A DNA stretch of 64,000 nucleotides from assembly GCA_039545335.1 (NCBI GenBank), contig BCIN01000003.1:2241060-2305059 (forward strand), written 5' to 3'. Both the position numbers and the translations under genes were made by a program. The stretch is from Kondoa subrosea (taxonomy: Eukaryota). The notes beneath the pieces are model-generated. The model was not told where the DNA came from. It saw only the letters and a list, made by a program, of their open reading frames with translations, and did no database searches. Shown here piece after piece: positions 33,976-64,000 of the stretch (the stretch's first letter is position 1; every line of letters starts with the position of its first letter).

Positions 33976-34351
33976 CTTCTTTTGATTGTTTGCTTTGCGG
34001 CAGAGACATGCGCTTCACTTCCATCCTCGCGTTTGATTGTTCCTCTTTCGCTTGACATGGTCTATCTGGGTCTGGTAGCAGATGTAAGAGAGCACACGAG
34101 TCTTGCTATGGTTGTCTAGGAAAGAAAGTACTGAGAATAGACAGGAAGGCAGTCAGAGAGACCGAAATAAAACTGAAGTACAGTAGATTGCAAGGCAAGC
34201 CAAAGACAGAGGTGCAATGACAAAGGACAACGCAACGCAAGCAGCTGACAGTACACGAGGCAAGCGGAGGAAATGAAAGGTGACGCTGCTCAGCTGCAAG
34301 CCGCGACTTCAGGTGCGCGGCTCGCTTCAATTCTCCCCTTTGAAAAAGACA
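33976..34351. repeat. ~370-bp direct repeat copy 1 (duplicate of 36213-36589, includes a frameshifted 5' end of the aminotransferase)
   Basis: Near-identical by eye to 36213-36589; duplicated ATG at 34058 (-); gagacatg versus gagaccatg single-base deletion. Confidence 0.92.
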
Positions 34352-36297: not shown

Positions 36298-36589
36298 GGT
36301 CTATCTGGGTCTGATAGCAGATGTAAGACAGCACACGAGTCTTGCTATGGTTGTCTAGGAAAGAAAGTACTGAGAATAGACAGGAAGGCAGTCAGAGGGA
36401 CCGAAATAGAACTGAAGTACAGTAGACTGCAAGGCAAGCCAAAGACAGAGGTGCAATGACAAAGGACAACGCAACACAAGCAGCTGACAGTACACGAGGC
36501 GCCGAGGAAATGAAAGGTGACGGAATCGCTCCTCAACTACAAACGAAGACTTGCGCGTCTCGTTTGGATTCTCCTCTTTTGAGAAGACA
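36213..36589. repeat. ~370-bp direct repeat copy 2 (aminotransferase 5' end plus divergent promoter region)
   Basis: Matches 33976-34351. Confidence 0.92.
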
Positions 36590-39485: not shown

Positions 39486-39950
39486 ATGTATTTCTTATTG
39501 CTTGTCGATACGATGTGCGCAACATGCGCTTGATTTTGACTCCCTAGTAGCCAGCTGGAGGACAAACACAAAAGAGGCTGAGGAGACAGTGAGAAGCTTT
39601 CTAGGCAGCGCTAACTTCTCACTACGCAGTACTCTAACCTTTGATCGAAGACTTATTATGTAAGCAAGCTCAAACTCTCATAGTCCTCCTTCCCTTTCAC
39701 CTACTGTCTCCACGCCGGTCAATTTAGATTTTTCTTCCGTACCTACACCTCCTCTTCCTCTATGTCCTTCGGGAATGTATATCCTCTTCTTGCGCCGCGT
39801 GAAAGATCCCTTTGGAATCACTTGAAGTGAAGATTTCTCGTTGCTCTCTGTCCTTCTCTCCCTTGTTTTTCTGTTGCTCGCCGTATCAATCCTCTCTCCC
39901 TTCTCCTGGGGCGAACAAAAAACGTGTCCCCAACGGCGCGTGCAAAAAGT

Positions 39951-40035
39951 TGAACCATAAGCGATTTGAACGCTTAACCTTCTGGAGCTTCAGAATGCTC
40001 TGGAATCAGACGCGCTACCGTTGCGCCAACGGTCC
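39951..40035 (-). tRNA. tRNA-Trp(CCA) with ~13-nt intron
   Basis: GGACCGT/ATGGTTC acceptor, GCGC-AACGGTA-GCGC D-arm, TCTGA-TT-CCA-G, intron agcattctgaagc, T-arm AAGCG-TTCAAAT-CGCTT, T5 terminator. Confidence 0.9.
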
Positions 40036-40257
40036 AATGTAAGCATCAGAAGGTCATACATATCTATAACATATGGTACAGTTTTTTGTAACCTACAAAA
40101 AACTGCATTAAGGCATCAAAGACTGACCTGGCAAAGACAATCGAGAATATCGTTTCATCGTTTCACTGCGGTTGTACCCAAACCAAAGTCGGATCCCAAA
40201 CGCTAAGGCAGGAGTTCTAGGCCTCTGTGTAGGCAAAATTAGCAGAAACTGATCTCT

Positions 40258-43200: not shown

Positions 43201-45258
43201 GCGGTAACCGATTATGAACTTCAATGTAAGCTGAGACCGCATCCTTCCAAACTCCAACTGGTAAACCCGCCTGATTGAGCATAGCAAGTACGGCATTATG
43301 TATTGTTTGATTCAATCGTTCAGCTATTCTTCTATTGAGGCGAACGAGCAACTGTTTTCTAATGAATGATGCCTTCTTCTTTCAATCAAATATGCTTCGA
43401 ATTCCGCTGAAGTGTATTCTCCTCCGTTACCAGACCTGGAAGTCTTGATTTTGTTCTTTGCTTGGGTAAAGATCCTGGCTTCGAAGAGTTTAAAAGCTTT
43501 GATTTGAAGCCTTCTTTATTGAATTAGACAAAATCGATAGACCAAAAAGTACTTTAAAGCACTCTTGATCGTACCGAAATAGCATATTTCAACACTTCTC
43601 GAGAGGTCTCCAATGGACCTTTTAAATCGGACAACACGAATTCGCCAGGAAGCAGTTCTTCTTCTGTTTCTTCAGATGAGAAGAAGGGAAACCGTTTCTG
43701 CTTTCCTGCCATACAAGGCTTGGCTTGCAGTCTTCAGCAATAGGATGGTAAGCTTTTATAGATGCACCATCGACCAATGATTTATCGATCAGGAACTTGA
43801 TCCGACCATTGCTAGCATGGCAGAGCCGCTGATGCAGAAGATGTTCTGTAAGCGGACGATTGCGTGCTTTTTCTTGAGGGCGAATGATGTGACCGTCTAG
43901 GTAAGCAAGTCCGTCTTTGTGTTTTGACGCTGTAACGCCACTTTTCCTTGACGATCGTAGAAGCGCATAGATGTACCCTTCGTATCAACTTTCATGTTAA
44001 GAGTAGATGTTAGATCTAAGATTGAAAGAAGTTTGGAAGACAATTCAGGGACATGTAACGCTTTTGGGAAAGTGAAGATCGGCAGAGATCTCTGTGCAGG
44101 TTGAAAGCGAAAGGACTCAATGCCATATATTGCAAACTTTTCTACTCCAGCTGTCCCTATTGTACCACTACTCTCTCTGTACTGAGCTAACAAAAATCCA
44201 TCGTTGATTATTGTGCTTGTTGCTCCAAAGTCTGCACAGAGCGTGTCAGAACGAGTTATGGTACGCAAGGGAAGACTTGCGGTCAGCATGGCTTGAGGGG
44301 TTTCTGCATCCTGATAGTTTGGCATGAGAAGATTGCTTGAATTTTGTAAATTCTGGTTCATCTTTCCTTTCATCCTTGTTTTCTTCAACGAATGCCTTGA
44401 TCACAAAATAATTTTCTATCGCGTGTCCGTTTCCATGTAGCATATAACCTCTTTTTTCTTCCTTTTCCTTAGCTTTAGAGGAAGAGGTAGAAGACACAGG
44501 GTAATGAATCGCTTTGCTTGCAACTTCTTGTTTTACCGCTTCTGGTTTGTATCTTGTCATTTGAGCTGCATTTTGTAAGGTATTGATAACACCAGCCATT
44601 GACAGATCAGGTTGGCCTGCTAGATTGGAAGCAAATTGCTGGAAAGACTCGCTTTCTGATCCGGAAAGAGCGTTCAGAACAGAATAGCGTTGCGTCTCTT
44701 TCACCAGTTCGCTAACAGTAAAGCCGACCGAGGTTCGAGAAGAGTATGGAGGAAGTAGATTGATTGGATCATCAGATGGGTTTTTGCAGGTTGCCAACAG
44801 AGTTTCTGCTAGACGAATTGCTTTGGGAATAAGAGACCATATAGAATTTTCTGGATCATGCTTCAGGTTGAGCAATTCAGACATGGCATGATAGCGACCA
44901 GCGCTAATTGGCATAGTTTTCTGTCCCTTGAGGATCGCATAAGCTTCGACAGGATCTCTAATTGACTGAATCAGAGTAGCGTGTTCAGAGTCGATGTATC
45001 GACGCAAGAGATCCAAAGCTTTGTTGTTCGCTGCTTGCATTTCCAGCGGAGGACGTTCGATAGGTTGTTCAAAGATATCTTGAACGTTTGCTTGAAGGCA
45101 AAGAGAGATAAGCTGGTTCTCCCATGCTTTCCCAATTATTGGAGTTGGTACTGCATGCGTTGCGGGAAAGAATGATTTTCTTATAGGTTTCTTCTGACAT
45201 TCTCGACGTTGAATGTTTGCTGTTGGCAGCTTGAAGACAATTACTTTGCGTGAGCCAT
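40258..45258 (-). mobile_element. Degenerate Ty1/Copia retrotransposon A (gag-PR-IN-RT-RH, stops and frameshifts, LTRs not identified)
   Basis: gag 44246-45040; PR ADFGATS; IN AERLNQT and VFGCPA; RT VYVDD; RH YTDAAFA..KSTSG; IN-before-RT order. Confidence 0.92.
41617..42121 (+). mobile_element. ~500-bp insertion interrupting RT of element A (LTR-like fragment)
   Basis: Removing it restores ...PGVDYNEFKAPVA; contains TATAAA and a CT-rich tract; shares a 25-nt block with 52563-52587. Ends uncertain. Confidence 0.6.
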
Positions 45259-45289
45259 AGAGTAGAGAGAACAGAGTTGTAGCTGTTCT

Positions 45290-45494
45290 TTTACAGGATG
45301 TGAAGCAGGATGACAGTTGAGGTCAGAGTTGAAGGTCAAAACGGAAACTTTAGGGCGAGATACTTCTTCTTCTCGAGCAATAGCTTAGAGAGCTGTATCT
45401 CGCAGGTATGAGTTGTACATATAACGTGCAACACAGCAATAGCTTAGAGAGCTGTATCTCGCAGAGCACTATCATTCTCTGAAGGTTATGAGCC
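45290..45494 (+). mobile_element. Orphan Copia LTR end plus PBS (family E), no gag downstream
   Basis: 30-bp direct repeats 45376-45405 and 45435-45464, followed by ...CTGAA and the PBS GGTTATGAGCC at 45484-45494. Left boundary uncertain. Confidence 0.75.
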
Positions 45495-47009
45495 TTGTGT
45501 TTCTCTAACTATTTGCTCTATTTCACTTCAGAGAATATAGCGACGAGACCAAGCGTGCGACAGGTGGACGAAAAATTAACCATAAAACAAGAGAGAAATA
45601 GGATCAACATCGCTTACTCAACCCTGCTATCTACCCAATCCGCTGTCCACCAATAGCAGCGTAGTGATGGCAGGCTGTTTCCAAGCACAGACTTGGTGCC
45701 ATCAAAAAGCAGATAAGCAACTAAGCTTCATATATTGAGTTTGTAGCATGAGAGAAAGTGCCCAGCAGTGCTCGAGCGAAATTCAAAAGGTTGAAGTTCC
45801 GTTTGAATGATAATGATCAGGAACGGAGGGTTTTCTCTGCCTTGGAGCAAGCCTTGCTCGACTGAAGCTTGCTCGACTTGAAGAGATCTCCTTGAAAGAA
45901 CAAGTAATAACGGTAGGTGCCTCTCACGATGGGTATCTTGAAGGAAAAGGAGAAAAGTAGGGATTCAGCCAGGGGAGCCAATAGAAGACCAAAGAAGACG
46001 GCTTGAAGAGTGGGACAGAGCAAATTGATGCGGAGGCCCTGTAGAAAGAGTCCGTCAGGACAATTGATTTAGATCAGCAGAGATTAGCTTAATATTGCTG
46101 AAGTGGGCAATAAATCGGGAGGATCCAAACTTTTTGTCCCAGAACGTTGCCCAGTTTTCCGTTCGTCTCTTATTTCCTACCATGCAATAAGTATGTCGAG
46201 ACTTCACAACCGTGTCATAGCATCATTCTGTAAGATATCAGCTAGTGAGCATTACAACATGATGCCACAAGAGCTGAGCTGAGCTGCAACTTTGTACAGG
46301 AATGTCATATCTCAAAGCTCTTTTGGATGTTACGCCTACACTACACGATATAGCCTTCTCTTTGTCATCGCCTTTCGAAACGTCCTCTTCCCTGTTCGCG
46401 TTCTGGGAGGTTGCTAATATCACGATGTACTCTCTCCAACACTCCTGTACGTGATCTTATACAAGGATCGAAGGAGCTTTAAGTTTTGATTATAGTGCAA
46501 TTTGCAGCGATATATCTCATGCATGGTAGGTATGATGAGCGTCCAGCCGGACTGGGCTCATTCGTGTCTAACTTTCCATTGGATCTCTTTAGTTCCTGTA
46601 GTTCAAGCATCTAGGATGACCGATGCTCGCAAGTACTTGGCAGAACATTTGCAGCTCGCACTGTACTGCCTGTATTAGGCCAATTCATAAGTTGAGCGAA
46701 GTAGCAAGAATGTGTAAGCCCACAAAGTAAAGTACTTTGTAATCGCTCTAACATACGATTGCTAGCTTTTCACACATTCGATCGATGTGAGACTGTTCGA
46801 GAGTCAATTGGCGCTCTTCCCTTTGTTGATGATTTCTAAATTGACTACGCAACACTATATAGATCAGGAATCATGGCAGAAATGAGTCTAAGGTTTTGTC
46901 TTTATCGCTTGTCTCTGAACCCGTCTGAATCTCGAAATATGCTAGTTCGGTACGATCAAGAGTGCTTTAAAGTACTTTTTGGTCTATCGGTTTAGCCTAA
47001 TTCAATTAA

Positions 47010-47154
47010 TGTTGAAAGTCAATGGTCGTTACAACTCTCTCAAATCTTCCTTTCTGCATTTCCTTTGCTACGCGTCATCTACGCGTCACGTCATCCTACG
47101 CGTCACGTCATCCTACGCGTCACGTACTTCACTTCCAGCGCACGCGATTTGTCA
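47010..47154 (+). repeat. Inverted partial copy of a B-family LTR (U3 start)
   Basis: TGTTGAAAGTCAATGGTCGT... is the reverse complement of 47588-47607 and continues with the same CGCG-rich repeats. Confidence 0.85.
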
Positions 47155-47164
47155 GTGGTGGGCC

Positions 47165-50100
47165 AGATAATAGAGCTGCTAGACTTCTCAAACTTGTTGG
47201 AATACAAGTATAGGATCATATTACATACCTGCTAGACTTCTCAGACTTGTTGGAATACAAGTATAGGATGAGAAGAAAAGCAGGAAGAANGAGAAAACTC
47301 GAGTTTTATGTACAGCTACCAGCCCAGATTGAAANCATACGACCCGGTACATCCCGATGTGGCAACCGTTGATATCGAAATGGGTCTCGACCGTTCATAT
47401 TGAAATAAGTCTCGACCAATCGCGTCGCGCTTGATGATGTAGAGTACGTGACGTGTAGGATGACGTGACGCGAAGTCGTGTAGGAAAAAGACGCGACGCG
47501 TTAAGATGACGCGACGTGTTGAGATGACGCGACGTGTAGATGACGCGTAGGAAAGAAGATGCAGAGAGGAAGTTTGAGAGATTTGTGACGACCATTGACT
47601 TTCAACACTCCCACTCGTTAAACTTGACCAAACTTCCGTAGACCCATTGACGTGCGATGTTTGACAAAGGTTTCTCTTGGTAAGGCTTTGGTAAGTATGT
47701 CGGCGATCATATCAGCTGTCGGACAATGAGTGATGTCCATTTCGCCAGCTGCAATCTTTTCACGAATAAAATGATGGTGAATGGCGATGTGCTTGGTGCG
47801 ATCATGCATACCAGGATTGTGGCATAAACAGATGTTGCCATAGTTGTCGTTCTTCAGAGGTAGAGGACCAATGACAGGACGTTGTAAGTTTGATAAGAGC
47901 AACTTCTTCCAGATAGCTTGTTTTGCCATATCTGAGCTTGCCATATATTCTGCTTCGCAAGTAGATTTGGCCACGGTAGGCTGACGCTTTGATTTCCAAG
48001 AGACAGTGTCGCCATTGACCTGGAAGATGTAGCCTGTAGTTGAGCGTCTTGTGTCCAAACATCCAGCATAATCCGCATCCGCATAGCCAAGTACCAAAGG
48101 TGCATCAGGATTAAGACCATAGCAGAGAGAAAGATCCAAAGTGCCTTTGAAATAGCGAAGAAGATGTTTGGCTGCTGCTACCTGCTGAGAGCCCCATCCT
48201 GAACTGTATTGTGACAGCTTGTTGGCAGCATAGGCACATTCTGGGCGAGTGACTTGAGTAGCATACATTACGCTGCCGACCACACTTTGAAAGGGATAAT
48301 CTCGATTCTTGGCAATGTCTTCTGGAGTCGGCTTCGTCAACTGACAGCCAGGATCCATAGGAGTGGTGACTGGATTTGCATCTTGCATACCGAACCGTTC
48401 CAAGACTTCACGAAGGTATTTTTCTTGACAAAGCCAGAGAAAACGTTTTTCTCTGTCGCGTTTGATCTGAACCCCAAGGAAGTAATTGATAGGGCCACGA
48501 TCTTCTAGCTTGAACCTATTGCTCATGTTTTTCTTGAAGTCATCCTTGGCTGAAACACTATTTGAAATGATAATTGAGTCATCGACATGGATTCCAACCC
48601 AGACGAAATCGTTGGCTTTTCTCCATAAATACAGACATATGTCGGCGTCGGCATGTTGGAAGCCTTGACTGAATATCCACTTGTCGTACATGCCATTCCA
48701 TTCGTGAGGTGATTGTTTGAGACCATAGAGTGATTTGTGCAAAAGAGCGACCATGTCTTTATCTCCTCCAGATTTCATGCCTTCAGGTATTTCCATGTAG
48801 ACCTTCTCTTTGAGAGTAGCGTTGAGAAAAGCCGTGTTGACATCACATTGATCTGCTTCCAAATCTTCTCGAGCAACGAAAGAAAGCAGTACTCTTGTTG
48901 TATCTCTGTGAGTGACTGGAGCATAGGTTTCACCATAGTTGACTCCTTCAACTTGACTTTAACCATCGGCGACAATACGACACTTTCTCTTGACCAATTC
49001 ACCTTCAGCATTTAGCTTGTTGTCAAAGAGATATTGTGACCTGACAATAGCTTCATCTGCAGCAAGAGTTGATCTTGGAATTTTGCTGAAGGTACCAGCT
49101 TGTATGAGAGCATTCTGTTCTGCTTCTATGGCCAACTCCCACTCCTTCCCATATTTGACTGCATCGCGGTAGCTTCTTGGTTTGGAAAGAGAGACCTCGA
49201 CATTCAGAGCAATAGGATCTTCATCAGACTCTTCTTCTTCAGATGATGATTCAGAGGTATCTGATAGGTTGAGGGTTGTATGAAGCTTGGCAGGAGGATT
49301 TGGAGAAGGACCTCTACCATAGAAGGATGTAGGAGTGCGATCTCTTGTACTTCGTCTGATTGTAGTTTCCGGTGCAGCTGAAGAATTTTCTGGAGAAGGT
49401 GAAGGTGATACAGATGGAGATGATACTTGAGTGTCGGGAATCGCATTGACAGATTCATCTTCTCCCACAGACTCTCCCACAGTTGCTGGATTTTCTGACT
49501 TTTGTAGATCAGGAATAACGACTCCCACATGATTCAGACGTTCAGGTAAATCCAGCTTGAGAATGTTCTTGGTGTCTTGAGGTGTAAATGATTCCTCCCA
49601 GTGCAAGACATCTCGAACGACCACAATCTTGCGACTGTCAGGGCAGTAGACACGATAACCCTTGATTCCATCTGGAAATCCAACGAAAAATCCCAACTTG
49701 GCGCGAGGATCCAATTTGCTAACACGCTTGTCCTTGTTGACAGTATAGTAGACTCTGCTGCCCCAGACTCTGAGATGACTGAGATCAGGGACTTTGCCAT
49801 AATATTTAGCATAAGGAACAGCTGATTCGACGGCAGAAGTTGGCGAGCGGTTTCGAAGATAGACAGCATGCGAGAAAGCTTCTGGCCAAAGAAATAACGG
49901 AAGACCAGACTCGTGCAGCATAGTTCTACCCATGTTTGCAATGGTGTAATTCATACGTTCGGCAACACCAAGCTGTTCATGTACGCCTGGTACAATGAAT
50001 TCTCTTTTGACACCATCTTCTTCCAGAAATTCAGTGAGATTCCGGTTCTTGGTTTCTGTACCGTTGTCGGTTCGAAAGGCAAGTGCCCAGTTTCTTTTTC

Positions 50101-52446
50101 GGCAGTGGCTTTCCAAGTTTTGGTTTTCTGCTTGACTTCGATTGGAGACTTGAAGAAAATAATTTTGACAAATCGAGAATTATCATCAATAAATGTTGAA
50201 TAATAACGAGAGCCACCCAAAGACAGAGTGCGAAAAGGACCAGCCATATCGGAGTGAACCAATTGAAGAACAGAAGAAGCACGAGAAAGAGATTGATGAG
50301 GAAAAGGGAGACGTTTGCCTTCGCCAATAACACAAGCGATAGAATTTGAATGTGTTGAACAGGTACAAGAGATGCCAGTAACCCATTTACTCGCTACTGC
50401 CTTTTGCATGTCTACTCCATTCAAATGTCCCCAACGTCTGTGAGAAAGACGCGAAGGGTCAGATAGAGTAGACAGCGCAAGGGTAGGAGAGGGCGCACTC
50501 TTTCGAATGATGGTAGCGTCGACTTTGTAGAGTTTGCCAAGTCGAGAGCCAGTTAAAATGGTCTTGTTGCTGGAGTGTTCGACCAGATATGCCATGGAAG
50601 GATGAAATTCGACCATGAGATCTTCGCGAGAGTCTAGTAAGGTTGAGACCGAGATGAGATTGCGAGGAAGACCAGGAACATGAAGACAATTCTTGAAAGT
50701 TCTGACGCCATAGCCTTCAGCATAGAATTGCAAAGTACCGGTAGCGATAGCTGAGAGCTGAAGACGACCAACATTGACAGGGATATGTTGAGCCAAAGTA
50801 GTGTATTCAGTCAAAGCAGGACCATCAGCAGTCATATGTTCGGTGCAGGCCGAGTCCAAACAGTAATCTTCAATGAATTTATAGGGTTTGAACCCGTTGA
50901 ATTGTTGTGAGCTTCGACACAGAAAGCTTCGGCAGATTCGACATTGTTTGCTAATGCTGATTGCATAATAGAAGGATTGTTCTTCATGATATCTTTCAAC
51001 TTGGTGAAACAGTTGTTGGTTCGATGGGTCTCCTTTCTCAAGCAGGGAGCATAAGTACACCATTCTGCTTCAGGAATGGTTGATTTGCGAACATTTGGTC
51101 TACCGTTTCTATTGTTGTTGACACGAGGTGGACGAGAACTTTGTTGAGTAGTAGTGTTCAAAGCAATAGCAGAAGAAGAGGAGATAGAACGAGTGTTGAG
51201 TTCTTCTTCTTGAGCCAGAATACGACGAGTGAGATTTGCAGTTGTGAAAGTTTCATCGGTATCATTGGCCACGAAAGAATTGCGGAAAGTCTGTCTGATA
51301 CACTTCAGGAAGCGAATTGAGCAAGAGAAAATTGATCATCTTGTCAGATATCTTGAAGACAGCATTGTCCAGCTTGGAGCGAGTTCGAAGGAAAGAAGTG
51401 ATATGTTCTTGCATAGTACCACCAGTGTAACGAGTGTTGACAGTCGACATGAGAAGCTTGCCTTGATAGACAATACCAGTGGGACCATGCACATCTTTGA
51501 GCTTCTTCTCAGCAGTGGCAGCCAGTTTGGTGTCCATGATATGCTTGAATTGAACTTCTTCCACAGTATCTGAATGAAATAGTAGGCTTCCTTGTTCTTC
51601 TTGTCCCATGCATTGATCAAGAAGTTGTTGGCCTGAATGTTTGCCTGATTGACATTGCCACCAGTAACACTTGCAGGCCTGACGCTTGCACCTCGAGCAA
51701 CATCCCACAACTCTTTGACATCCAAGAAGCCTTCCATTCTAGCAGACCAGACGTCATAGTTGTCCATGTTTAGATGGGTGATGTTGATTTTGAGGTCAGT
51801 CATATTTCAAATTTGACCGATAAAAGAAACGATTGATAAAGAAGATTTAGAATGAGTTGAAAGATAGTTCAGATTGAAATTGGTCTGAATTGAAATGTTT
51901 GTTGATAGTTGAATTCAGGGGACTAAAGCTGAATTTGAGTTTGAACCAGATAGATGTTGGTTGAAATTGAAATTGTTTTGATGTTGGACGATCCCGGAGT
52001 CCGAATGAGGAGAAGTGCTTGAGCAGTTGAATGAATAGAAGGAAAGAAGGATTGATTGAGGTAATCTTCAAGCACTTCCAAGGCTCATAACCTAAGATAA
52101 ATAGAGCTGCTAGACTTCTCAGACTTGTTGGAATACAAGTATAGGATGAGAAGAAAAGCAGGAAGAAAGAGAAAACTCGAGTTCTATGTACAGCTACCAG
52201 CCCAGATTGAAATCATACGACCCGGTACATCCCGATGTGGCAATCGTTGATATTGAAATGAGTCTCGACCGTTCATATCGAAATGAGTCCTGACCAATCG
52301 CGTCGCGCTTAATGAAGTTAAGTACGTGACGTGTAGGATGATGACGTGACGCGAAGCCGTGTAGGAAAAGACGTGACGCGTTGAAGTGACGCGACGTGTT
52401 GAGATGACGCGACGTGTAGATGACGCGTAGGAAAAAAGATGCAGAG
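47165..52446 (-). mobile_element. Ty1/Copia retrotransposon B, frameshifted gag-pol, 3' LTR 47165-47607, 5' LTR 52093-52446 (U3-truncated)
   Basis: Paired LTRs; PBS at 52082-52092; PPT GAGTGGGAG next to 47607; gag from 51803; PR LDSACTEH; IN HSDMAG/RTDNGTE/VAER; RT IHVDD; RH YADADY. Confidence 0.95.
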
Positions 52447-52459
52447 TTAAGTCGTGTCT

Positions 52460-53760
52460 TTGCTGCAGGGTAGGTCTGACAATGACCATAGACTTACGTT
52501 TAGGGAACTTTGTGTAAGGCAAGCAGCTCCCACAGCTCTTGTTCTTCGTTCATCCTTCTTTCCTGCAATCGAAGCGGTTAGATACTGATTCCTGATTCCT
52601 GCAGGTACACCTTCCCTCGACCACAAGCATTGGACCTTCTTCATTCACCCTCATCTACAAATCTGCTTTCCAACTGGTGGATGTTCTTCAGACTCCTAAT
52701 GGGACCCATCATCTTTACTTGAGTCGGACTACCTTTCGATTCCCTTTGATAGAGCTGTGCCGTTAACCACAAGGCTAAATCGTGATCCCTCGCAAAAAGG
52801 AATACAATTTTAACTGATGAGGTTAAAACGTTTAACGGACTAGTTGTGTCGAAGAATGATGGTTTGAGACCCATCAAGAAGCTTTGCTGGATTTGAAAAC
52901 CGCTTTATGATTGCAGAAAAGAATGATGGTAAAAGAGCAAGAGCTGTAAGAGCTGCTTGCTTTGTACAAAGTTATGAAGAAGCTTCTTTTGAAAGATGTT
53001 GAATCAGATACTGTACTATTGAGATCTTGCTCGTGAGCCATCGTCATAAGGACAACCGGTCTTGAATGACGGTTGTCTTGAATGATAGCCTGCTATCAAT
53101 CGACCAGAAGGTACTTGTTACACAGAACAACACTTGAGAAGGAGTGTGAGATGTAAAGTCGAGTTGAAGCAAAGAGACTGTTGTGTAGAGCGAAGGAGAA
53201 GGAGCTAAATAGCTTGACATGACATCCTGTGGTCAAGAAGAGTACTTCAGCAGATGTCAATGGCCAAAGATACGAACTGGAACAAGACTTAGCTTTGGCA
53301 GAAAAAGGAAGGAGAGTGATCTCTATCAGCAAGTCAAAGGGGATCACGAAAGGTGCCTGTGTTTAGCGGCACAGCCCTGTCACTAAGTGCGAGTGATTGC
53401 ACAAGTAGCTTGCAGGCTCAAGAGAGATCACTCTAGTAAAGCAGTGATATACCTATGGAGCAGGATGTGTCAGCAATACCACCAGGAGAAGACTGCTACT
53501 TTTCGAAGAATCTCAATACGCTATATTGTATAAGGACAAGATAGGGCAGTACTATTGCCATGATTGACGACAAATCGATGATGACAAATGTTCGATTTTC
53601 CAGACGAGAGTCGGCATGACGATCACCGGATCAAAGCTTATTTTTTTGTCGTATCGCGCAGCGCGAGACTCGCATCAATGTAGGCAACACTTTAGTAAGT
53701 GTCAGATGCTAAGGTCTAGGGGCGTCTTAGATTGCAGATGTCAGAAGCGCTTCGGAAATT
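52460..53760. other. Decayed repeat/LTR-element remnants, not classifiable
   Basis: Short matches to the 41.6-42.1 kb insertion (ctgcaatcRaagcggttagaYactg; gtcagatgctaag) and retro-UTR-like composition; no recognisable domain. Confidence 0.35.
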
Positions 53761-56700
53761 CGTGTGAGTGCTTCTTCTTGCTACTCTGTTCAGGTCAATA
53801 TAGAATCGTTACGTGAAAGATGTGTGAATTGTCGTGGTGAGGGCTCAAGCGGATTCGACATGGCTACAGCTATTAGTTAGTCTATCAAGCTTTCCCGAGA
53901 GATGTTATGATGTATTGAATGCACTTTGGCAGTGCACCGTCGTTATTGTTATTCACTGGAGTTCCTCTGATTAGAATGGATGACATTTATACACAAGCTA
54001 TCTACCTGGAGTTCCTCTGATTAGAATGGATGAGGAACTCCTACCCGTAATTCCACCTTGTGATCCTGCTTCCGTTTCATATTCCGAATTCCCGAGTCTT
54101 CCCTTATACTCCCTTATACTGAGATGAACGACAAACCTCACACTCCCCCTTCGTGAATCTCAGTCAATCCGCAAGCTCTCCGATGCTTTTCCACTACTCC
54201 TCTTGACAAAGGTTTAGTGAGCATGTCCGCTATCATGTCTCCCGTATTGATGTACGACACTGAAATGATCCCTTTTGATTGATAGTCTCTTATGAAATGA
54301 AAACGATTGTCGATATGCTTGGTCCTTTCATGATGAACAGGATTGTAAGTCAGAGCAATGGCTGGCTTATTGTCGGCTTTGAACGATGATGGACCATTTA
54401 TAGGCAACCCGAGCTCATCCATGAGTTGACGACATGCTTTAGCCTCTGTTGCTGCTTCAGACATAGCAACATATTCAGCTTCTGTTGATGACAAGACATT
54501 TTCCATCTGTTTCTTGCTCTTCCAAGCGATAGCACCACCAGCTAAAACATTGACATATCCACCAGTCGATCGCCTGTCATCGCTGTCTTCGTTGTAATTG
54601 GAGTCTGAATATATAATTGGGGTGAAGTCATCAGTTGCTTTATATGTGATGCCTAAGTTTGCAGTGGTGGAGAGGTATCGATATATGTGCATGACCGCTC
54701 TGTAATGATCCATACTTGGGTCATCGTTGAATTGTGCAGCTAGAGAAGTATTGTAGGCAATGTCGGGACGAGTCCAGCGAAGGTGTTGAAGTTCTCCTGT
54801 GAGACCACGATAATCACCGAGATATGGTTCTTCATCTTCTCTTCGTTTGTGGAGCTTGATATTTGGAGGCAACGGAGTATAGACAGGCCGACAATTCGTT
54901 AGACCTTGATTGGCTACTATCTTCTCAATATAGCGCTGTTGAGATATGGAGCACTGTCCGGGCTGATGTTTGACTTCCATGCCTAGATGTTTTGTCATCT
55001 TCCCATTGTCTGTACATGGAAACCGGTCTTTGATTTCTTTCTTTGCCTGATCGATCATTGCAGGATTGCCAATCACAGCCATATCGTCCGTGTGAATGCC
55101 GATAGCAACAAACTCAGTTTCAGAACGCTTGATAAAAACGCAAGGGTCTGACAGGCATTGATGGAATCCTATTGAGACCAGGAAACCACTGAGCAGCTTA
55201 TTCCACTCTCGACTAGCTTGCTTTAACCCATACAGCGACTTGAGAAGGCGACAGACCAAGTGTTCCGATCCAGCTTGTTCGAAGCCCTTTGGTTGTTTCA
55301 TATATACTTCTTCGTTGAGAGGAGAATGTAGGAAAGCGGTAGTTACATCAAGAGAGTGTATATCTATTCCAAATTGAGCTGACCAAGCAAAGATCAAGCG
55401 CATTGATGCTGCTCTGATGTTAGGTGCGAAAACTTCAGCGAAATCAATTCCTTGCCGCTGAGAGAAACCTTTGGCGACTAAGCGAGCCTTGTAACGGACG
55501 ATATTGCCATCTGCATCTAGCTTAAGCGCATAGACCCAGCGATTGTCGACTACATTCGCTCCTTCTGGTAATTCTTGTAACTCCCAGGTATAATTCAGCA
55601 GCAAGCTCTTCACTTCCTCTTCCATGGCTTTCCTCCATGCGCTTCTATCAGATGATTTGAGAGCATCCCAGTAGTTCTCAGGAACAACTTTTGAGCCAAC
55701 CTCAGCGACCATACATTCGAATGTTCGTTGTAAGTCATCATCTTCTGTTGTATTGAGCTCCTCAGCCAAGTTTATGAATGCAGTTGAACATGCTCCATCA
55801 AGATAAGACGATGATAGATTGATTTGCTGAATATTTTGATTTGGGTATTTTAAGATTAACGGCTTTGTAGCTGGAGAAGGAGGAGGAGGACGAGGTATAC
55901 GAGTTCTAGGAATACGTTGCTTAGGTATCCAAGCTGGCTTGACAGACCGAGTCGGCTGTTGACGAATAACAGGGTTGCTCTTGACTACCGGCTCCCCCTC
56001 AACATCGACAAGGGCAGGCTCCCCCTGAAGCCCAGGATTTGGTACGTCTTCCATAGCAGCGGGAGGTTCCACCATTGAATCAGCTTCAGCTTTTTCATTT
56101 TCCGATTGGATTTCATTCGTTTGCCCCTGCAAATCATTCGGTGCTCGCTCATGCGGCTGAGTTGCTCCTGTGACAGGAGGCATGGACCCACCAGAAGGAC
56201 AATTCTCATCACTGTCTATTTCGCCCATGACATCAACAAACTTATCAGCTTCCTTTGCTGCATCAACGCTTTCGCTTGCATTTTCTTCCACAACATGATC
56301 ACTCTTTGCATCATTTTCTGGTATCCATCGAACGTCTCGATGTACCGTAACAGTGCGTCTTTCTTCGTCATACAACCGATAACCAGGCTGATCTTTTGCA
56401 AAGCCAACGAATCGCATAGCTTTTGATTTAGGCGATAACTTGTCTTTTCTTTCATCGATATGAGGATATGCAACACAACCGAACGGTTTTGTGTTTTCGA
56501 CTGAAATTTTCTTATCTGGGTAGAAACGCTGATCCGGTAAATCGAGATTGATAGCTGCAGAAGGTGTGATGTTTCTCATATCCACAGCCCATTGATAAGC
56601 TTCTAACCACAGGTTTCTGGGCAGATTAGCATCGTCCAATACAGTAATCACATCATTAACGAATGTGCCATTGGATCTTTCCACACCACCAGTTTGTTCA

Positions 56701-57797
56701 GGTGAGCGCACATTTGTTCGAATATGTCGAATTCCTTTCTCTGAGCAGAAATCGCGTAGACGGTGAGATTCAAACTCTCCTCCAGGGTCTGTAAGGAAGT
56801 TTAGGACTTTATAGCTGGTATGCCGTTCGATTAAGGTCACCCAAGCAATGAAAGCTGATGTTGCTTGACTCTTTTCTTGTAGACCTATCGTCCATCGTTT
56901 GGTGGTGCATTGGTCGTAGATATTGAAAACGTATCGATTATGTCCTATCAACGACTGAACTGGAAGAGGGCCTTGAAGATCTCCTTTAACAAGTTGAAGT
57001 GGTATTGTTGCTCTATCGTGGTTTCTTTGGTGCGGATGCGCTTTGGATTTACCTATGACACACGAAACGCAGAAGAAGTTTTCTGGTTTCTTCAGGTCAG
57101 TCGGCAATCCTTGAACGTATTGTCGTTTGCTCATGCTTTCGAGATATTTGGAATTCAGATGGCCTAACTTTCTATGCCATTGTTCGAAACTGGATAGATG
57201 ACACTCTTGACAAGTAGGTTTGGCTTGAAAGGTAAAGAGATTGTTTTGTTTATTCTGATAGATGCGGTAGATAATGCTTGAGCTTTCATTATCGATCAGG
57301 GTGAGAGAGTTGTTGGTAAAGAGTGAGTTGATTCCGTCCAAGCTTGCTTGACCAAGACTGAAGAGATTGGTGGTCAGACCGGGAACCAAATATGCTTTCT
57401 TCAGTATGAGAGGTACGCTTGTTCCTTCTGATTCCAGACATAGATTCACAGTTCCCTGATGCGTTGCATAGATAATGCTTCCGTTACCAATGCGGATTGG
57501 CATGGGTTTCGATAAAGGGATGATAGAAGAGAAGAGAGCAGAATTATTGATAAAGTGCGATGACGCTCCGCAGTCAGCAATGAAGCAATACGAGGTGGAA
57601 GGAGCAGTTATGCTCTGCATTGCAGACATATACAATGATTCTTCACCTTCTTGCCATGCAGCTACGTTTGCTGATTCCTGCTTGAGAGGTTCAGATTCAT
57701 TCTTCTAGAGCATGAGGAGAGCGAAGTAGATGAAGAAGAGTTGGACGTATAAGGTGTAGAGGGTCGACTCAATCCAAAAGTCACAAGAGTCTCATAT

Positions 57798-57947
57798 NNN
57801 NNNNNNNNNNNNNNNNNNNNNNNNNNNNNNNNNNNNNNNNNNNNNNNNNNNNNNNNNNNNNNNNNNNNNNNNNNNNNNNNNNNNNNNNNNNNNNNNNNNN
57901 NNNNNNNNNNNNNNNNNNNNNNNNNNNNNNNNNNNNNNNNNNNNNNN
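57798..57947. other. Assembly gap (150 N) inside the 5' LTR of D
   Basis: The 3' LTR equivalent (62861-62902) is only 42 bp, so the gap is probably over-sized. Confidence 0.85.
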
Positions 57948-58252
57948 TCTTCACTGAACTATATATTGAGAAGGATTGCAGGTAAGTGTACATAATACAG
58001 ACATAACTGAACTATATATTGAGAAGGATTGCAGTTACAGAAGGTTATGAGCCTTGAAGAGCTCGAAGATTGAACACTCCAACAATCTTCACCTGCGCAA
58101 AGAACCTTTATTCTATCCTTCTCCAGTCACCTTCAGTCACTTCACACTCTCATTTCACTGTCAGATCCTCTTTTGCAGATTCTCTTGAGTCAGTAGTTAG
58201 CAGAATCTCAATTCAACTCCTTTAAAATTCCAATCAACTTCAAGTCAGTCGA

Positions 58253-61200
58253 ATGGCAGGAGACGAGTCAAAGGAAGAATCAAAGATCATTGCTACACCC
58301 TCAAACGTTCAAGGGACTCAAACAAGGATGACTTTGCAAACTTATCAACAGCCAAAATTGATCATCTTCTCAGAAGATCAAAAGCTCAAAGATGGCAACT
58401 GGAGGAATTTCAAATCTATGATAGGAGACATCATGGTTCATCAACGCCTATTCAATATCTTGGATGGCTCAGAAACTTTGTCCAACACCCAAGATCCTCA
58501 ATCTTTCAACTACAAGAACTCAGATGCTTTAGCTCAATTACGTCTCAACGTCACTTCTTCCATTCGTCCGCGTATTGAGCNTTGTACTTTGGCATCAGAA
58601 GCATGGTCAATTCTACAAGAACAATTTGACCCCAAAGGAGGAGCAATCCCTTTTCAGCGCCTCTCGTCACTCTTCAATTGTAGACCAGATCAACACAATT
58701 CTCTCAAAGATTTCGTTACTGCTGTTCAAGATGCCAAACGACATTGCGAAGAAGTCGATATTCCCATTCCAGCAGTTATCCACAAGTATCTCTTGATCTT
58801 CAACCTTCCATCATCGTGTGCTATCATCTCCGAGATAATGATCAATACCTTGACCTCTCTATCCGTGGCTGATGTCGAAGCCAAGATCTCAGAGTTTGAG
58901 ATCAGGGAAAGCATGAAAGATGAAAAAGTTGCAATGTTGGCTGCAAGAGGAGGTATTTCAGGTGGTCATGTCAAAGCTCGAATGAAATGCACTGGTTGTG
59001 GACGAAACGGTCATTTGTTGGATGGTGACGGAGAAGGCAGATTTCGATGCTTCAAGAAATACCCCAACGATCGAAAACCTCGAATCAATGAATCTAAGCA
59101 AGATTCTGGTGCTCACAATCCGCAACCTGGCATTCAAGCAAACATTGCCGAGTCTCAAGAGCAAGAGGGACGTTTCAGCTTCTTGTCGCAAAGTCTTAGT
59201 ACTGAAATGAAAGGCAACCTTGCCGAATTTGATCCTTACTTGTGGATAGGCGACTGCGGTGCCTCATTCCATTTCACTCCTGCTATCGAACACTTCATTC
59301 ATCTGCATCCGTTGAGAACTCATATGCCTATCAAAGTTGGTAATGGAAATCGAGTATATGCTACTCATATTGGAACAATAAAAATCAACCTCATGCACAA
59401 GAATCAGCTAAAGTCACTTGAATTCAACAATGCATATTTAGTTCCTGGTCTATCAGCCAATCTCATTAGTCTGGGTCAAGCTAGTGTTCAAGGCATGACT
59501 ACAGTGATTCAAAATGGAACAATGAGCTGGCAAACAGCATCAGGTCAAACAGCACTCGAGATTCCGCTGTCATCATCAAACAGCCTGTTCAGCTTCAAAT
59601 CGATACCAAATAAAACAGCCAAAGAATGCCATATGACAGCCTTTGAGCAATGGCACAATAACCTTGGTCACATCAATGCAAAGTATCTTGAGCAACTAAG
59701 CCGCTCTGGTGTCCATGGCTTACCGACTGATTTGAAAGCCCCAAAAGGTTGGAGCTGCGAGCCATGCATTCTTGGGAAGATTAGAGCAAACCCTCACTAC
59801 TTGAACAACTTTAGAGCCAAACAACCGTTAGAATTGGTTCAAGCGGACCTACAAGGGCCTTATCCTGTTCAATCCATCATCGGCCATTTTCGTTATGTAC
59901 TGAAGATATATGACCAAGCCTCCAGCTTTCGTTTCGCTATTGGTCTACAAAACAAATCAAATGCTACATCGATGATTATAAGATGGCAGAAAGAAATGGA
60001 GAACTTACTTGATCTAAAACTTCAAAACTTTCACTTGAAGACCTTCCTAACTGATCCCGGTGGGGAGTTCAAATCCAATGCTCTGAGGGATCATTTTCAG
60101 GAATGTGGTGTCCGTCACGTATTCACCAATACTGACACGCCTTCGCAACAAGGGGGGGTAGAACGCACTGGTCAAACGTCAGAAAATGATGTGATAACGC
60201 TATTGCAAGATTCTGGCTTACCAAACAACCTGTGGTATGAATGCTATCGATACAGTATCGATACTAGAAACATTACTCCTTCTGCAGCAATCAAAGGTCG
60301 AGTTCCAGCTCAAGTCTTCTTCCCTAACAAACGGTACTCAGTTGCTCATTGTCGGCCATTTGGAGCTAAAGCTTACCCTCATTTTCACGAACACGAACGC
60401 AAGAATCGTTTGTCGCCCAAATCCAAACCAATGCGCTTCGTTGGTTATGGAATAAATCAACCAGGTTATCGGCTTTATGATGAAGAAAGCAAGACCGTCA
60501 AATGTTATAGAGATGTTGTATGGTGGAAAGAAAAGGAAGAAGAGCAAATCGAGGCACCGGAAGAGGAAGAGACTGAATCATTGGTCGAGCTGGATGGTAG
60601 ACCCTTTCCTTCCAGTGGGTGTTTGGATTCTCCTGCACCCGGTACCATTGAGCCGCAATTGCGAGCTACCGATGATCTACAGGACCCACCAGCGAACAGT
60701 GAGATTGCCGATGACACAATTCCGCAAGAAATCCGAAGTGAGGTTGTCAATCCAAACATCGATCAAACAATAAATCAGGGGGAGCCAGTGGATCAGGGGG
60801 AGCCAGCCCTTGCAGGTGATGAGGGGGAGAACAGAGTGGCAGTCGAAGAAGCGCCAGATAGAATGGTAGTCGCAGAAGAAGACAATTCAGCTCTGCCTCA
60901 AACCACCAAACAAAGAAAGACCTATCCTCCGCCTACACGTCATCAACCTGCAAGAGCCAGTAAGATAGCTACATCCTCAATCAAGCCAATTGTCAACTCT
61001 CGCGTCAAAACTCGTAGACTGTCTGAAGCAAAAACACCTTTGATTGTCAAGCCTTTTAGAGATACTAAATTATCCCTTTTCCTTTCCTCAACCATCAAGG
61101 ATGACAGACTATCAACAGCAATCAACCTAGCTGAGATCCTTTCTTCCTCGGAAGATGATGAACTATCAAACCTGTTTGAATGCTTGACCGCTGAAGTTGG

Positions 61201-62815
61201 AACATCAGTACCAGTGCCAGCACATTATTATGAAGCGTTGAGATCTTCCAATCACCCTCAATGGCGAAAAGCGATGGAGACAGAGATCAATTCCCTTCTA
61301 GACAATCACACTTGGGACCTAGAAGAACTGCCAGAAGACGCCAACCTTGTCCAAAACAGATGGGTATTCGCACTCAAACTTGATTCTGACGGCAATATAA
61401 TTCGATATAAAGCAAGACTAGTCGCAAAAGGATTCTCTCAGAGACCTGGAATCGACTACTTTCAACTATTTGCGCCCAATATACGTGCTGCTTCGTTCAG
61501 AACATTAATCGCTATAGCTGCCTTACATGATCTACCCATCCGCAAGATAGACATTACTACCGCTTTCTTGCATTCACCTCTAAAAGAAACGGTCTACATG
61601 CGCCAGCCTGAAGGTTTTATCAAGGAAGGTGAAGAGCACCTGGTCTGTAAACTTCAAAAATCGCTATATGGGTTGAAACAAGCTTCTCGCGAGTGGAACT
61701 TGCTCATTTCAAGTTTTCTTACATCCGTTGGTTTTCACCAGTGCATATCAGATCCATGCGTCTTCATAAGGCGATCAGAAGGTGGATTAGTTATTTTGGG
61801 TGTTCATACTGATGACATCTGCTTGGTTGGGAAACAAGAATCTAGTCAGCAAGCTATCGATGAAATCAATGCTCGTTTCCCTGCAGTCGAGAACACTTCA
61901 CCAAAGCACTTAGGTATGGAAATCGTACAAGATCTCAAGAATGGGACCGTCACTCTTTCTCAGAAGCAATACCTTAAGACAATCGTGCAGAATCGCAATT
62001 TCCCGGATTATAGACCAAAAAGGACTCCTTTACCTGCCAAACTAAAACTTCACAAGCGTTTAGATAGCGAGGAAAAGGGATGTATTGAAGAATATCGATC
62101 CATGGTTGGCGAATTGCAGCATGCTGCTCGTTGGTCAAAACCTGAAATAGCTTTTGCTGCATCGCTTCTCGGACAATTCTCAGCAGATCCTAGTATTCAT
62201 CATATGAAGGCTGCTGAACATGTCTTCCGCTATCTCTCCGGCAGTCTGAACAGTGGTTTAGTTTACAAAAGAGACGGGAATTCAGTTCCATGCATTTACA
62301 CCGATGCTAGTTTCTGTGAAGATCAAGACTTGCGAAAGTCCACTTCCGGCTATTTCAACATTCTTGCTGGAGCTGCAGTAGCGTGGAAATCGCACAAACA
62401 GATTGACAATGTAACATCAACAACTCAGGCGGAATTGATTGGCATGTCAGAAGGCGCAACTGAAGCAAAGGCCTGTACCATGCTGATGAACGAATTGGGA
62501 ATGGGCTGGAACGGTCCAATGCCTTTCAAGGGTGATAATCAGCCGTCAATCGACCTCATATTCAACCCAATTCACCATGAGAGAACCAAACATGTCGATA
62601 TTCGCTACTATTACACGCGAGATCTGCAATCTCAAGGTGTCATTGATGTTACGCATACACCAACCAACGATATGATTGCGGATATGTTGACAAAACCTTT
62701 GGGCAAGCAACTTTTGAGGAAGCATGCTGCAGGATGTGGACTTGTTGGCTTAGTCGAAGGGGGAGTTCTAGAGCATGAGGAGAGCGAAGTAGATGAAGAA
62801 GAGTTGGACGTATAA
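58253..62815 (+). CDS. Gag-Pol polyprotein of element D (1520 aa)
   Basis: Single ORF: PR DCGASFH, GAG-pre-IN WHNNLGH..CEPC, IN ADLQG/TDPGGEF/GVER, RT YKARLVAKG/SLYGLKQ/HTDD, RH YTDAS..RTKHVD. Confidence 0.96.
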   Translation: MAGDESKEESKIIATPSNVQGTQTRMTLQTYQQPKLIIFSEDQKLKDGNWRNFKSMIGDIMVHQRLFNILDGSETLSNTQDPQSFNYKNSDALAQLRLNVTSSIRPRIEXCTLASEAWSILQEQFDPKGGAIPFQRLSSLFNCRPDQHNSLKDFVTAVQDAKRHCEEVDIPIPAVIHKYLLIFNLPSSCAIISEIMINTLTSLSVADVEAKISEFEIRESMKDEKVAMLAARGGISGGHVKARMKCTGCGRNGHLLDGDGEGRFRCFKKYPNDRKPRINESKQDSGAHNPQPGIQANIAESQEQEGRFSFLSQSLSTEMKGNLAEFDPYLWIGDCGASFHFTPAIEHFIHLHPLRTHMPIKVGNGNRVYATHIGTIKINLMHKNQLKSLEFNNAYLVPGLSANLISLGQASVQGMTTVIQNGTMSWQTASGQTALEIPLSSSNSLFSFKSIPNKTAKECHMTAFEQWHNNLGHINAKYLEQLSRSGVHGLPTDLKAPKGWSCEPCILGKIRANPHYLNNFRAKQPLELVQADLQGPYPVQSIIGHFRYVLKIYDQASSFRFAIGLQNKSNATSMIIRWQKEMENLLDLKLQNFHLKTFLTDPGGEFKSNALRDHFQECGVRHVFTNTDTPSQQGGVERTGQTSENDVITLLQDSGLPNNLWYECYRYSIDTRNITPSAAIKGRVPAQVFFPNKRYSVAHCRPFGAKAYPHFHEHERKNRLSPKSKPMRFVGYGINQPGYRLYDEESKTVKCYRDVVWWKEKEEEQIEAPEEEETESLVELDGRPFPSSGCLDSPAPGTIEPQLRATDDLQDPPANSEIADDTIPQEIRSEVVNPNIDQTINQGEPVDQGEPALAGDEGENRVAVEEAPDRMVVAEEDNSALPQTTKQRKTYPPPTRHQPARASKIATSSIKPIVNSRVKTRRLSEAKTPLIVKPFRDTKLSLFLSSTIKDDRLSTAINLAEILSSSEDDELSNLFECLTAEVGTSVPVPAHYYEALRSSNHPQWRKAMETEINSLLDNHTWDLEELPEDANLVQNRWVFALKLDSDGNIIRYKARLVAKGFSQRPGIDYFQLFAPNIRAASFRTLIAIAALHDLPIRKIDITTAFLHSPLKETVYMRQPEGFIKEGEEHLVCKLQKSLYGLKQASREWNLLISSFLTSVGFHQCISDPCVFIRRSEGGLVILGVHTDDICLVGKQESSQQAIDEINARFPAVENTSPKHLGMEIVQDLKNGTVTLSQKQYLKTIVQNRNFPDYRPKRTPLPAKLKLHKRLDSEEKGCIEEYRSMVGELQHAARWSKPEIAFAASLLGQFSADPSIHHMKAAEHVFRYLSGSLNSGLVYKRDGNSVPCIYTDASFCEDQDLRKSTSGYFNILAGAAVAWKSHKQIDNVTSTTQAELIGMSEGATEAKACTMLMNELGMGWNGPMPFKGDNQPSIDLIFNPIHHERTKHVDIRYYYTRDLQSQGVIDVTHTPTNDMIADMLTKPLGKQLLRKHAAGCGLVGLVEGGVLEHEESEVDEEELDV

Positions 62816-64000
62816 GGTGTAGAGGGTCGACTCAATCCAAAAGTCACAAGAGTCTCATATTACTAATCAAGAGATGGAGATCCGGAATTCTGCAATCCTT
62901 TCTCTTCACTGAACTATATATTGAGAAGGATTGCAGGTAAGTGTACATAATACAGACATAACTGAACTATATATTGAGAAGGATTGCAGTTACAGAACAT
63001 TCCTCCTCTTCATGAATGGCGGAACATCTTGTGGGTATTTCTTGAAACATCTATACTTTCCTTCTTTGTTCCCATCCTCAAAATGACCAGTTTTCTTGCA
63101 GTAATTACATTTGAGTAAAGATCTTCCATTGCGGGAATCGTTGACCCTGCCAGCTAACAGAGCTGTTGCATTCTCTTCACTCTGCCTTCTCTCGAAATCA
63201 AGAATTCTTGATTCGACTGCTAATTCAGACATTTGAGGAAGTTCGTTGACCAAGATCTCTTTCACAATAGCGCAAGATGTCGGAAGATTGGCAACAAGTA
63301 GGAACTTATAGAATAGCGTTGAGACCTTTTCATCTACTTGTTCTAAAGCGGTCTTCCTGTCTCTCATGGCTGTAATGAATTCAGATAGGGTTGAGAATTG
63401 TTCGGGTCGGCAAAAGACAAATGCGTTCATGCGCTGAAATGGTACAGATCCTCCTTTTGGCGAGAATTGTTCTTGAAGTATAGACCATGCATCATAGGAA
63501 GTAGTACAATTCTTGATGTGTACCAGCACTTGATCCGTAACATTCATTCTTATGGATGTCAACGCCAATCGATCACTTCTGCCCCATGCCTTCAGATCAA
63601 TTTCATATTGAGCAAACTTTGGATCCAATTGATCTGAGCCTTTGATATTTGAAGAAGAAGAAGAAGAGAAGATCGGCGCAGTAGGTGGTTTGATCTCTCC
63701 AAGTGCAAAGTCTTCGAGCTGGTACGTTGCCAGGTAATCGCTAATGCGAACTTTCCAATCTGAGTAGTTGGTAGCATTTAATTTCTCTTGTACTTGAAAT
63801 GGCTTATAATTTGGTCGATCGTACAAAGAGGTCGACATCGTAAGATTGATGTGTGAGATAGATAATATCTCAGATGTAAAGATGATACAGATAGAATTTC
63901 AAGAAATTGAGATGATATTGATCCACTCAGTTGAGCAAATTTGAGATTCAAATGAAAATTTGCTGAAGGTCAGAGGAGCGCGCCAAGGCTCATAACCTGT

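Follow-up and report, generated by a model that had tools for sequence, protein, structure and literature searches.

Spliced introns are normally erased by retrotransposition, and because of this retroelements are intronless or export unspliced RNA. In the canonical U3-R-U5 transfer of retroviruses and long terminal repeat (LTR) retrotransposons, the strong-stop DNA finds its place through a short sequence that both RNA ends carry, and the LTRs are rebuilt from both ends. Splice donors lie inside R in human T-cell leukemia virus type 1 (HTLV-1), bovine leukemia virus (BLV) and the foamy viruses, and the 5' poly(A) site is silenced in a U1-dependent manner in HIV-1 (human immunodeficiency virus type 1) and foamy virus. 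Penelope-like elements and the pea Ogre element retain introns, and Ty5/copia-type (hemivirus) elements are primed by the anticodon region of the initiator tRNA-Met. For maize LTR retrotransposons, the available part of a recent preprint reports spliced transcripts contained in the LTR, which its authors claim as the first evidence of introns in LTRs (bioRxiv 10.64898/2026.05.08.723830), and a splicing and polyadenylation strategy of Arabidopsis Copia elements is presented in the accessible portion of PMC5580714. Here we analyzed a window of 64 kb from Kondoa subrosea (the whole stretch of 64,000 nucleotides, contig BCIN01000003.1, positions 2,241,060 to 2,305,059), in which the LTRs of four Copia families, here called B, C, D and E, carry a repeat unit of the form X-CAG|GTA...X-CAG. 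We tentatively propose, with slightly less than even confidence, that R is in these elements an exon, and that an intron within the LTR would be spliced at the RNA 5' end and rebuilt in both LTRs every cycle, as strong-stop DNA made on the spliced leader would land, at the 3' end left unspliced, on the R copy that the intron contains.

The proposed scheme shares with the canonical transfer the guiding sequence at both RNA ends and the rebuilding of the LTRs. It differs in that the partners, the first and second copies of X (X1 and X2), occupy different positions in the LTR, so that the proposed transfer would shift the register, a shift that would be offset by the loss of one unit at the 5' end. 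With the retroviral R donors it has in common a 5' splice site in the LTR part of the leader and one LTR signal that is read differently at the 5' and 3' ends, whereas in the viruses the genomic RNA is not spliced and the acceptor is found a long way downstream, in the body; here the candidate donor, branch and acceptor all lie in the LTR, together with a repeat of the upstream exon. As in Ty5/copia-type elements, the domain order is of the Copia type and the primer-binding site (PBS) GGTTATGAGCC, which holds the complement of the CAT anticodon loop, abuts the 5' LTR. The difference lies in the LTR repeat and putative intron, for which nothing comparable was found in the literature on Ty5, copia and Tca; we know of no such LTR repeat or intron in those elements. 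Penelope-like, Ogre and Arabidopsis Copia elements likewise carry spliceosomal introns and use splicing in their expression, but their introns lie in the element body and survive via unspliced RNA or by unknown means, and none is known to have the X-AG|GT...X-AG arrangement. The maize introns do lie within LTRs; they average 1303 bp, in contrast to those proposed here, and occur in long LTRs that give non-coding RNAs, with neither exon repeat nor regeneration described in the available part of the preprint (bioRxiv 10.64898/2026.05.08.723830). No exon-repeat intron in an LTR was found described in a full-text literature search that covered few subscription journals and no bioRxiv supplements.

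The whole window was scanned on both strands for exact repeats (14-mer seeds, period 25-200) and with a tolerant criterion (21/24 matches, period 35-130). Its short-period direct repeats proved to be five units in the four Copia LTR families and nothing else. Script re-extraction gave the layout X-CAG|GTA...X-CAG in all five, with X of 28-41 nt and 50-59 nt from GT to AG. The units and the adjoining parts of the LTRs, with a one-copy form found in family B, are as follows.

45376..45405, plus strand: family E, X copy 1 (30 nt, ends in CAG; proposed R and first exon)
45406..45464, plus strand: family E, proposed intron of 59 nt, a 29-nt spacer (GTATGA...) and X copy 2 ending in CAG
45435-45464, plus strand: family E, X copy 2 (30 nt, 30/30 identical to copy 1)
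45465..45497, plus strand: family E, U5 of 19 nt, then PBS GGTTATGAGCCTTG (45484-45497)
47165..47269, minus strand: family B, end of the 3' LTR (X1 47269-47229, spacer 47228-47217, X2 47216-47176, U5 47175-47165)
52079..52147, minus strand: family B, end of the 5' LTR, one-copy form (X 52147-52107, U5 52106-52093, PBS 52092-52079)
53956..54033, minus strand: family C, 3' LTR unit (X1 54033-54006, spacer 54005-53984, X2 53983-53956)
57703..58042, plus strand: family D, 5' LTR (X1 57953-57981, spacer 57982-58005, X2 58006-58034, U5 58035-58042)
62766..62997, plus strand: family D, 3' LTR of 232 nt (X1 62908-62936, spacer 62937-62960, X2 62961-62989, U5 62990-62997)

The two copies of X were identical in E (30/30 nt), in C (28/28) and in both LTRs of D (29/29 and 29/29), and matched at 40/41 nt in B, where the lone mismatch is a C to T change in X2, inside CTGAG. 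In the B 3' LTR the spacer GTATGTAATATG is 12 nt long and starts GTATGT, U5 is CTCTATTATCT (11 nt), and 53 nt separate GT from AG; the corresponding figures are a spacer of 22 nt starting GTAGAT and 50 nt for C, and a spacer of 24 nt starting GTAAGT and 53 nt for both LTRs of D. The U5 of D, TTACAGAA, is 8 nt, a length fixed by a CATTC target-site duplication, and the PBS directly follows U5 in E and in the 5' LTR of D. The borders of X are sharp on both sides, in that the bases preceding X1 and X2 differ at once, and the second copy, which again ends in CAG, is followed by AG, CT, TG, TT and TT in the five units. All repeat coordinates of the initial annotation held on re-extraction, as did its statement that every X copy ends in CAG with GT only after the first. 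It had also put the LTR remaining downstream at 8-19 nt, which was found for D (8 nt), the B 3' LTR (11 nt) and E (19 nt), the U5 of C being undefined.

The hexamer CAGGTA occurs 40 times on both strands of the 64 kb, or ~3e-4 per position. Four independent CAG|GTA junctions would then arise by chance with a probability of ~1e-14; given the common ancestry of the families, this figure sets an upper limit to the surprise. The repeat unit is confirmed as a real feature, far beyond chance. One described source of such a pattern is intron gain through tandem duplication of an AGGT-containing segment, where the upstream exon end also recurs at the intron 3' end and splicing restores a single copy. 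That model copies the whole unit, whereas here copy 2 is followed by a U5 unrelated to the spacer, and the copies stay identical in the long term. We rejected it for these units, as the AG, CT, TG or TT after copy 2 is unlike the spacer.

The four families were initially described as unrelated. Their LTRs are indeed unalignable, with no cross-family match by blastn (4 queries), but the elements are related Copia retrotransposons, with pol identities of 48-51% between D and C and 33-34% between B and each of these two, and a 14-nt PBS common to E, B and D. A TATAAGG box 75-97 nt upstream of X1 is common to C and D, and all spacers hold a motif one base off UAUAUA. The further claim that the repeats share no sequence between families had to be dropped: the 3' end of X (last ~17 nt) is alike in B, C and D, around TTGAGAAG...CAG. 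Since the pol sequences of D, C and B are related and the PBS of E, B and D is identical, the architecture is more likely to have been inherited once from a common ancestor and kept under constraint than to have been invented four times. The protein atlas relatives of the elements were generic Copia; as to the host, the atlas pointed no further than to a fungus, probably a basidiomycete. A metagenome scan with the D and C alignment returned four loci of 36-40% identity, in which no AG|GT repeat unit was found outside tandem arrays, and no relative appeared in scans of viral contigs or prokaryote genome contigs. A repeat pair in metagenome locus L002 was rejected as an LTR, being a duplicated coding stretch.

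Given that X1 and X2 are near-identical while the LTRs cannot be aligned between families, one copy appears to be rewritten from the other during replication, which favours homogenisation at each cycle. A neutral duplication of long standing would have decayed, and it is not credible that four duplications arose recently and independently and all came to end in CAG|GTA. The relatedness of the families does allow a single event to underlie all four, and one could suppose a functionless tandem duplication in R/U5 of the ancestral LTR, made by slippage of reverse transcriptase and merely inherited, with CAG|GT as an accident of that ancestor; the coexistence of one- and two-copy forms in B would fit such a history. 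Such a duplication should have decayed like the rest of the LTR, and what is found instead is copies that are identical and sharply bounded; moreover spacer and X differ between families, and conservation is confined to the splice-like positions and a short core. We consider this origin very unlikely.

Other arrangements of transcript ends were also considered and set aside. If transcription started at X1 and the RNA were unspliced, in-register transfer would never compare X1 with X2, giving no homogenisation, and out-of-register transfer would add a third copy every cycle. A start at X2 would make X1 a functionless part of U3, which should decay, and polyadenylation right after X1 would lose the spacer and X2. 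The only route that we find to explain the pattern simply is a register-shifted first-strand transfer with one unit removed at the RNA 5' end. With unit removal and landing on X2, two copies would be kept, X2 would be overwritten by X1, and X would be bounded on its left by the RNA 5' end and on its right by the junction. Given the signals present, splicing would be the obvious means of removing the unit; a jump of reverse transcriptase between the repeats would yield the same DNA, yet leave the splice signals unexplained.

Those signals were compared with introns of the host. The reference was a set of eight introns in one hand-built model of the triosephosphate isomerase (TPI) gene, ab initio intron scans of the host region being too noisy. 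The gene lies on the minus strand at about 9885-8600 and contains eight or more introns; joining the exons gives a stop-free frame that encodes a typical TPI as far as the conserved GGASLKPE, which lies close to the C-terminus. Past this motif the sequence looks atypical and may hold a ninth intron. The eight introns measure 58, 50, 52, 65, 53, 56, 58 and 56 nt, with the donors GTAAGG, GTGTCC, GTGCGT, GTAAGA, GTATAT, GTAGGA, GTTAGT and GTAAGT and the acceptors AAG, CAG, CAG, TAG, TAG, CAG, CAG and CAG. Five of the eight have a CTNAN motif at a distance of 13-19 nt from the 3' end.

The LTR units, at 59 (E), 53 (B), 50 (C) and 53 nt (D), fall inside the TPI range of 50-65 nt, in agreement with the match to host intron lengths claimed earlier. 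All five have CAG|GTA...CAG, and TPI itself uses donors as loose as GTATAT and GTAGGA. Each of the four families has a CTNAN (CTTAG, CTGAG, CTAAT and CTGAA), a motif so short that chance could produce it, at a distance of 12-24 nt from the 3' end of X; the CTAAT previously pointed out in the C repeat is present, 15 nt from the 3' end. The actual X2 of B carries TTGAG, its single mutation having removed the CTNAN.

These same splice-site, length and branch features would be expected of an ordinary 5' untranslated region (5'-UTR) intron in a conventional R made up of X1, spacer and X2. In that case the RNA that is packaged and copied would be unspliced at both ends and transferred in register, as retroviruses treat their introns, and only the translated mRNA would be spliced; the repeat would have another role or be kept alike by occasional template switching. 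This leaves the second X and the sharp left border of X unexplained, and offers no mechanism that would keep X1 and X2 identical in four families with unalignable LTRs. We regard such an intron as unlikely. Donor and acceptor are also present at both ends of the full-length transcript, and in a long-range reaction the donor that follows X1 in the 5' LTR could react with the branch and acceptor that the 3' LTR carries in its X2, forming a lariat that joins the RNA ends and aids the transfer of the first strand, an idea put forward earlier for Ty1 and Dbr1. That lariat model of Ty1 has since been disputed, and the local unit is already of host intron length, so that the nearby acceptor should win; to this long-range reaction, whose Ty1 precedent is mentioned in the accessible text of PMC1266399, we give hardly any credence.

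The splice-and-regenerate cycle that we favor would run as follows. In the LTRs of one Copia lineage, R would be a short first exon X, followed by a host-type intron whose last 28-41 nt are a second X. Transcription would begin in the 5' LTR, on the first base of X1 or beside it, and the cap-proximal intron (spacer and X2) would be spliced out to give X|U5-PBS-gag-pol. The copy in the 3' LTR would be left unspliced, with cleavage and polyadenylation in or just after X2 via an AU-rich signal in the spacer. Minus-strand strong-stop DNA made from the spliced leader would be the complement of U5 and X; its 3' end would pair with the terminal X2 of the RNA and be extended through the spacer, X1 and U3. 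Both new LTRs would then again read U3-X-spacer-X-U5, X2 being overwritten by X1 in each cycle, whereas landing on X1, or splicing at both ends, would leave a one-copy LTR. The likely pay-off would be a spliced mRNA from an otherwise intronless gene and the removal of the LTR terminator from the 5' end. On the full model our judgement, formed from the sequence, is evenly divided. The splice-and-rebuild reading first put forward in the initial annotation is partly supported: it is fitted by the host-intron-like signals and lengths, the sharp borders of X, the near-identity of X1 and X2, an argument that the annotation had not used, and a B LTR in what would be the spliced form; what falls is its appeal to unrelated families.

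In E, B and D, X1 is immediately preceded by a pyrimidine-rich tract, and in B a TATA-like CATAAAA lies ~42 nt upstream of X1; the tract and the spacing of the TATA-like boxes would fit a start at X1 but do not prove it. For the 3' end, one-base variants of UAUAUA are known to work. UAUAUA itself is the consensus of the yeast efficiency element, as given in the available part of PMC8522215. The consensus being that of yeast, we infer by analogy that the spacer could serve as a terminator in this host.

The same terminator could be controlled without any splicing, if CAG|GTA served as a binding site for the U1 small nuclear ribonucleoprotein (snRNP) and silenced a promoter-proximal terminator in the 5' LTR. 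X would then be a duplicated R, and switching of reverse transcriptase between the direct repeats would homogenise the copies and sometimes delete one. Silencing of this kind is known in HIV-1 and foamy viruses, and reverse transcriptase readily deletes direct repeats. The AU-rich motifs of the spacers, one base off the yeast UAUAUA (consensus in the available part of PMC8522215), would suit it. Left unexplained are the host-intron match of the GT-to-AG length, the branch-like motif in all four families and the acceptor-like CAG at the end of X, and we judge a U1 site without splicing to be distinctly improbable.

The one-copy LTR of family B bears on the splice-and-regenerate cycle in both directions. 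Its single X is 41/41 identical to X1 of the 3' LTR and is joined directly to U5, which the PBS follows. This form is exactly the product that would be expected from landing on X1 or from splicing at both ends. DNA contigs assembled from reads of the probable source sample were also examined; these cover the region 47336-64000, which excludes the E LTR and the B 3' LTR unit, and break at the X repeats. In them the two-copy form at the B 5' LTR end was seen as a contig joint, and depth was single-copy for C and D and ~5-7x single copy for B.

Several points weigh against the splice-and-regenerate reading. A plain deletion between the X copies, by template switching of reverse transcriptase or by recombination, would give the one-copy product equally well, so the B one-copy LTR is no proof of splicing; the B LTR pair shows only that one- and two-copy forms interconvert, in an element that is itself rearranged. 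Among the contigs listed, only one passes through the B spacer, at a depth of 65.8 (single-copy) against ~7x for the B LTR bin, a hint that most B LTRs in this genome may be one-copy, which would weaken the case that the unit is indispensable. If transcription starts ~30 nt past the TATA boxes, the start would fall upstream of X1 in C and D, breaking the strict model. Two of the donors, GTATGA in E and GTAGAT in C, are weak, and AGs lie between the branch-like motif and the final CAG in D and B (TAG|CAG in B). Finally, the sample is one genome, with one LTR each for E and C, one two-copy LTR for B, and for D the two LTRs of a single element.

If the splice-and-regenerate model is true, the conflict between splicing and retrotransposition would be solved in a new way, by an element that undergoes splicing and yet keeps its intron. 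The same 50-59 nt would be an intron at one RNA end and a terminator and transfer acceptor at the other, a compact use of one LTR signal as both promoter-near intron and 3' terminator. In some fungi introns have been reported to be needed for mRNA accumulation, and splicing quality has been reported to feed genome defence; the model would show how an intronless gag-pol can resemble a spliced host mRNA. It makes a simple prediction for annotation, namely LTRs with X-AG|GT...X-AG, and marker transfer is likewise predicted.

The elements that carry the units differ in preservation. Beyond the LTRs, their main parts are as follows.

58043..58056, plus strand: family D, PBS GGTTATGAGCCTTG, directly after the 5' LTR
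58226..62815, plus strand: family D, intact gag-pol frame, 1529 codons stop to stop, Copia domain order
54138..57704, minus strand: family C, pol frame of 1188 codons, which the D insertion interrupts and which resumes at 62990-63898 (minus strand)
47618..51806, minus strand: family B, internal region, degenerate Copia coding sequence split into several frames

Family D is a complete Copia element, with an LTR pair, a target-site duplication, a PBS, a polypurine tract and an open frame. Its domains (Retrotran_gag_2 71-232, Pol_BBD 340-423, gag_pre-integrs 457-518, rve 533-637 and RVT_2 1027-1269) give the polyprotein order gag - protease - integrase - reverse transcriptase of Ty1/Copia elements, and C has the same order. 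The CATTC duplication lies at 57698-57702 and 62998-63002, and the polypurine tract GAAGGGGGAG precedes the 3' LTR. Comparable blocks of the two LTRs are identical, the 5' LTR having a 150-N gap at 57798-57947. Termini of the TG...CA type, common in Ty1/Copia and not strict, are absent in D: with the boundaries set by CATTC, its LTR reads TTCTAG...TTACAGAA, that is TTCT...AGAA. As identical LTRs, CATTC and an open frame mark D as a clean recent insertion, the two-copy form would be what a working element makes.

Only the 3' LTR of C falls inside the window. Family B, in which RVT_2 was detected, is an old broken copy, with an LTR block that is 94.8% identical (12 mismatches in 233 compared positions); no matching flanks were found around it, and its 5' LTR is without ~42 nt at the outer end. 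For E we found one LTR and a PBS, and no detectable Copia coding sequence in what follows. ATG triplets occur in the spacers of E, B and C, and splicing would remove them from the leader; an ATG lies in the PBS itself too, and in D a short upstream frame begins with it.

The retrotransposon nest fills 40282-64000 in several layers, with D sitting within C. It includes a fifth, degenerate Copia element on the minus strand (40282-45322), in which the tolerant scan of the window found no X unit. An inverted fragment of another B LTR (47053-47155) adjoins B. Eight of the ten ACGCGT sites in the window lie in the U3 of B LTRs or in the inverted B fragment (47070-47120, 47496-47548 and 52376-52428), within short repeats of the GACGCG type; they are clustered, although the whole-window count is not above chance, and may be a promoter element.

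In the gene-rich part of the window, 34007-34261 and 36246-36500 were considered as an LTR pair and rejected. They are direct repeats of 255 nt with 97% identity, separated by 2.2 kb, and look like a gene end or promoter that has been duplicated locally. A tRNA gene at 39949-40036 on the minus strand (ARAGORN, Ser-aga, probably intron-containing) lies ~220 bp from the end of the nest, a proximity that could reflect RNA polymerase III (Pol III)-directed integration as in the yeast Ty elements.

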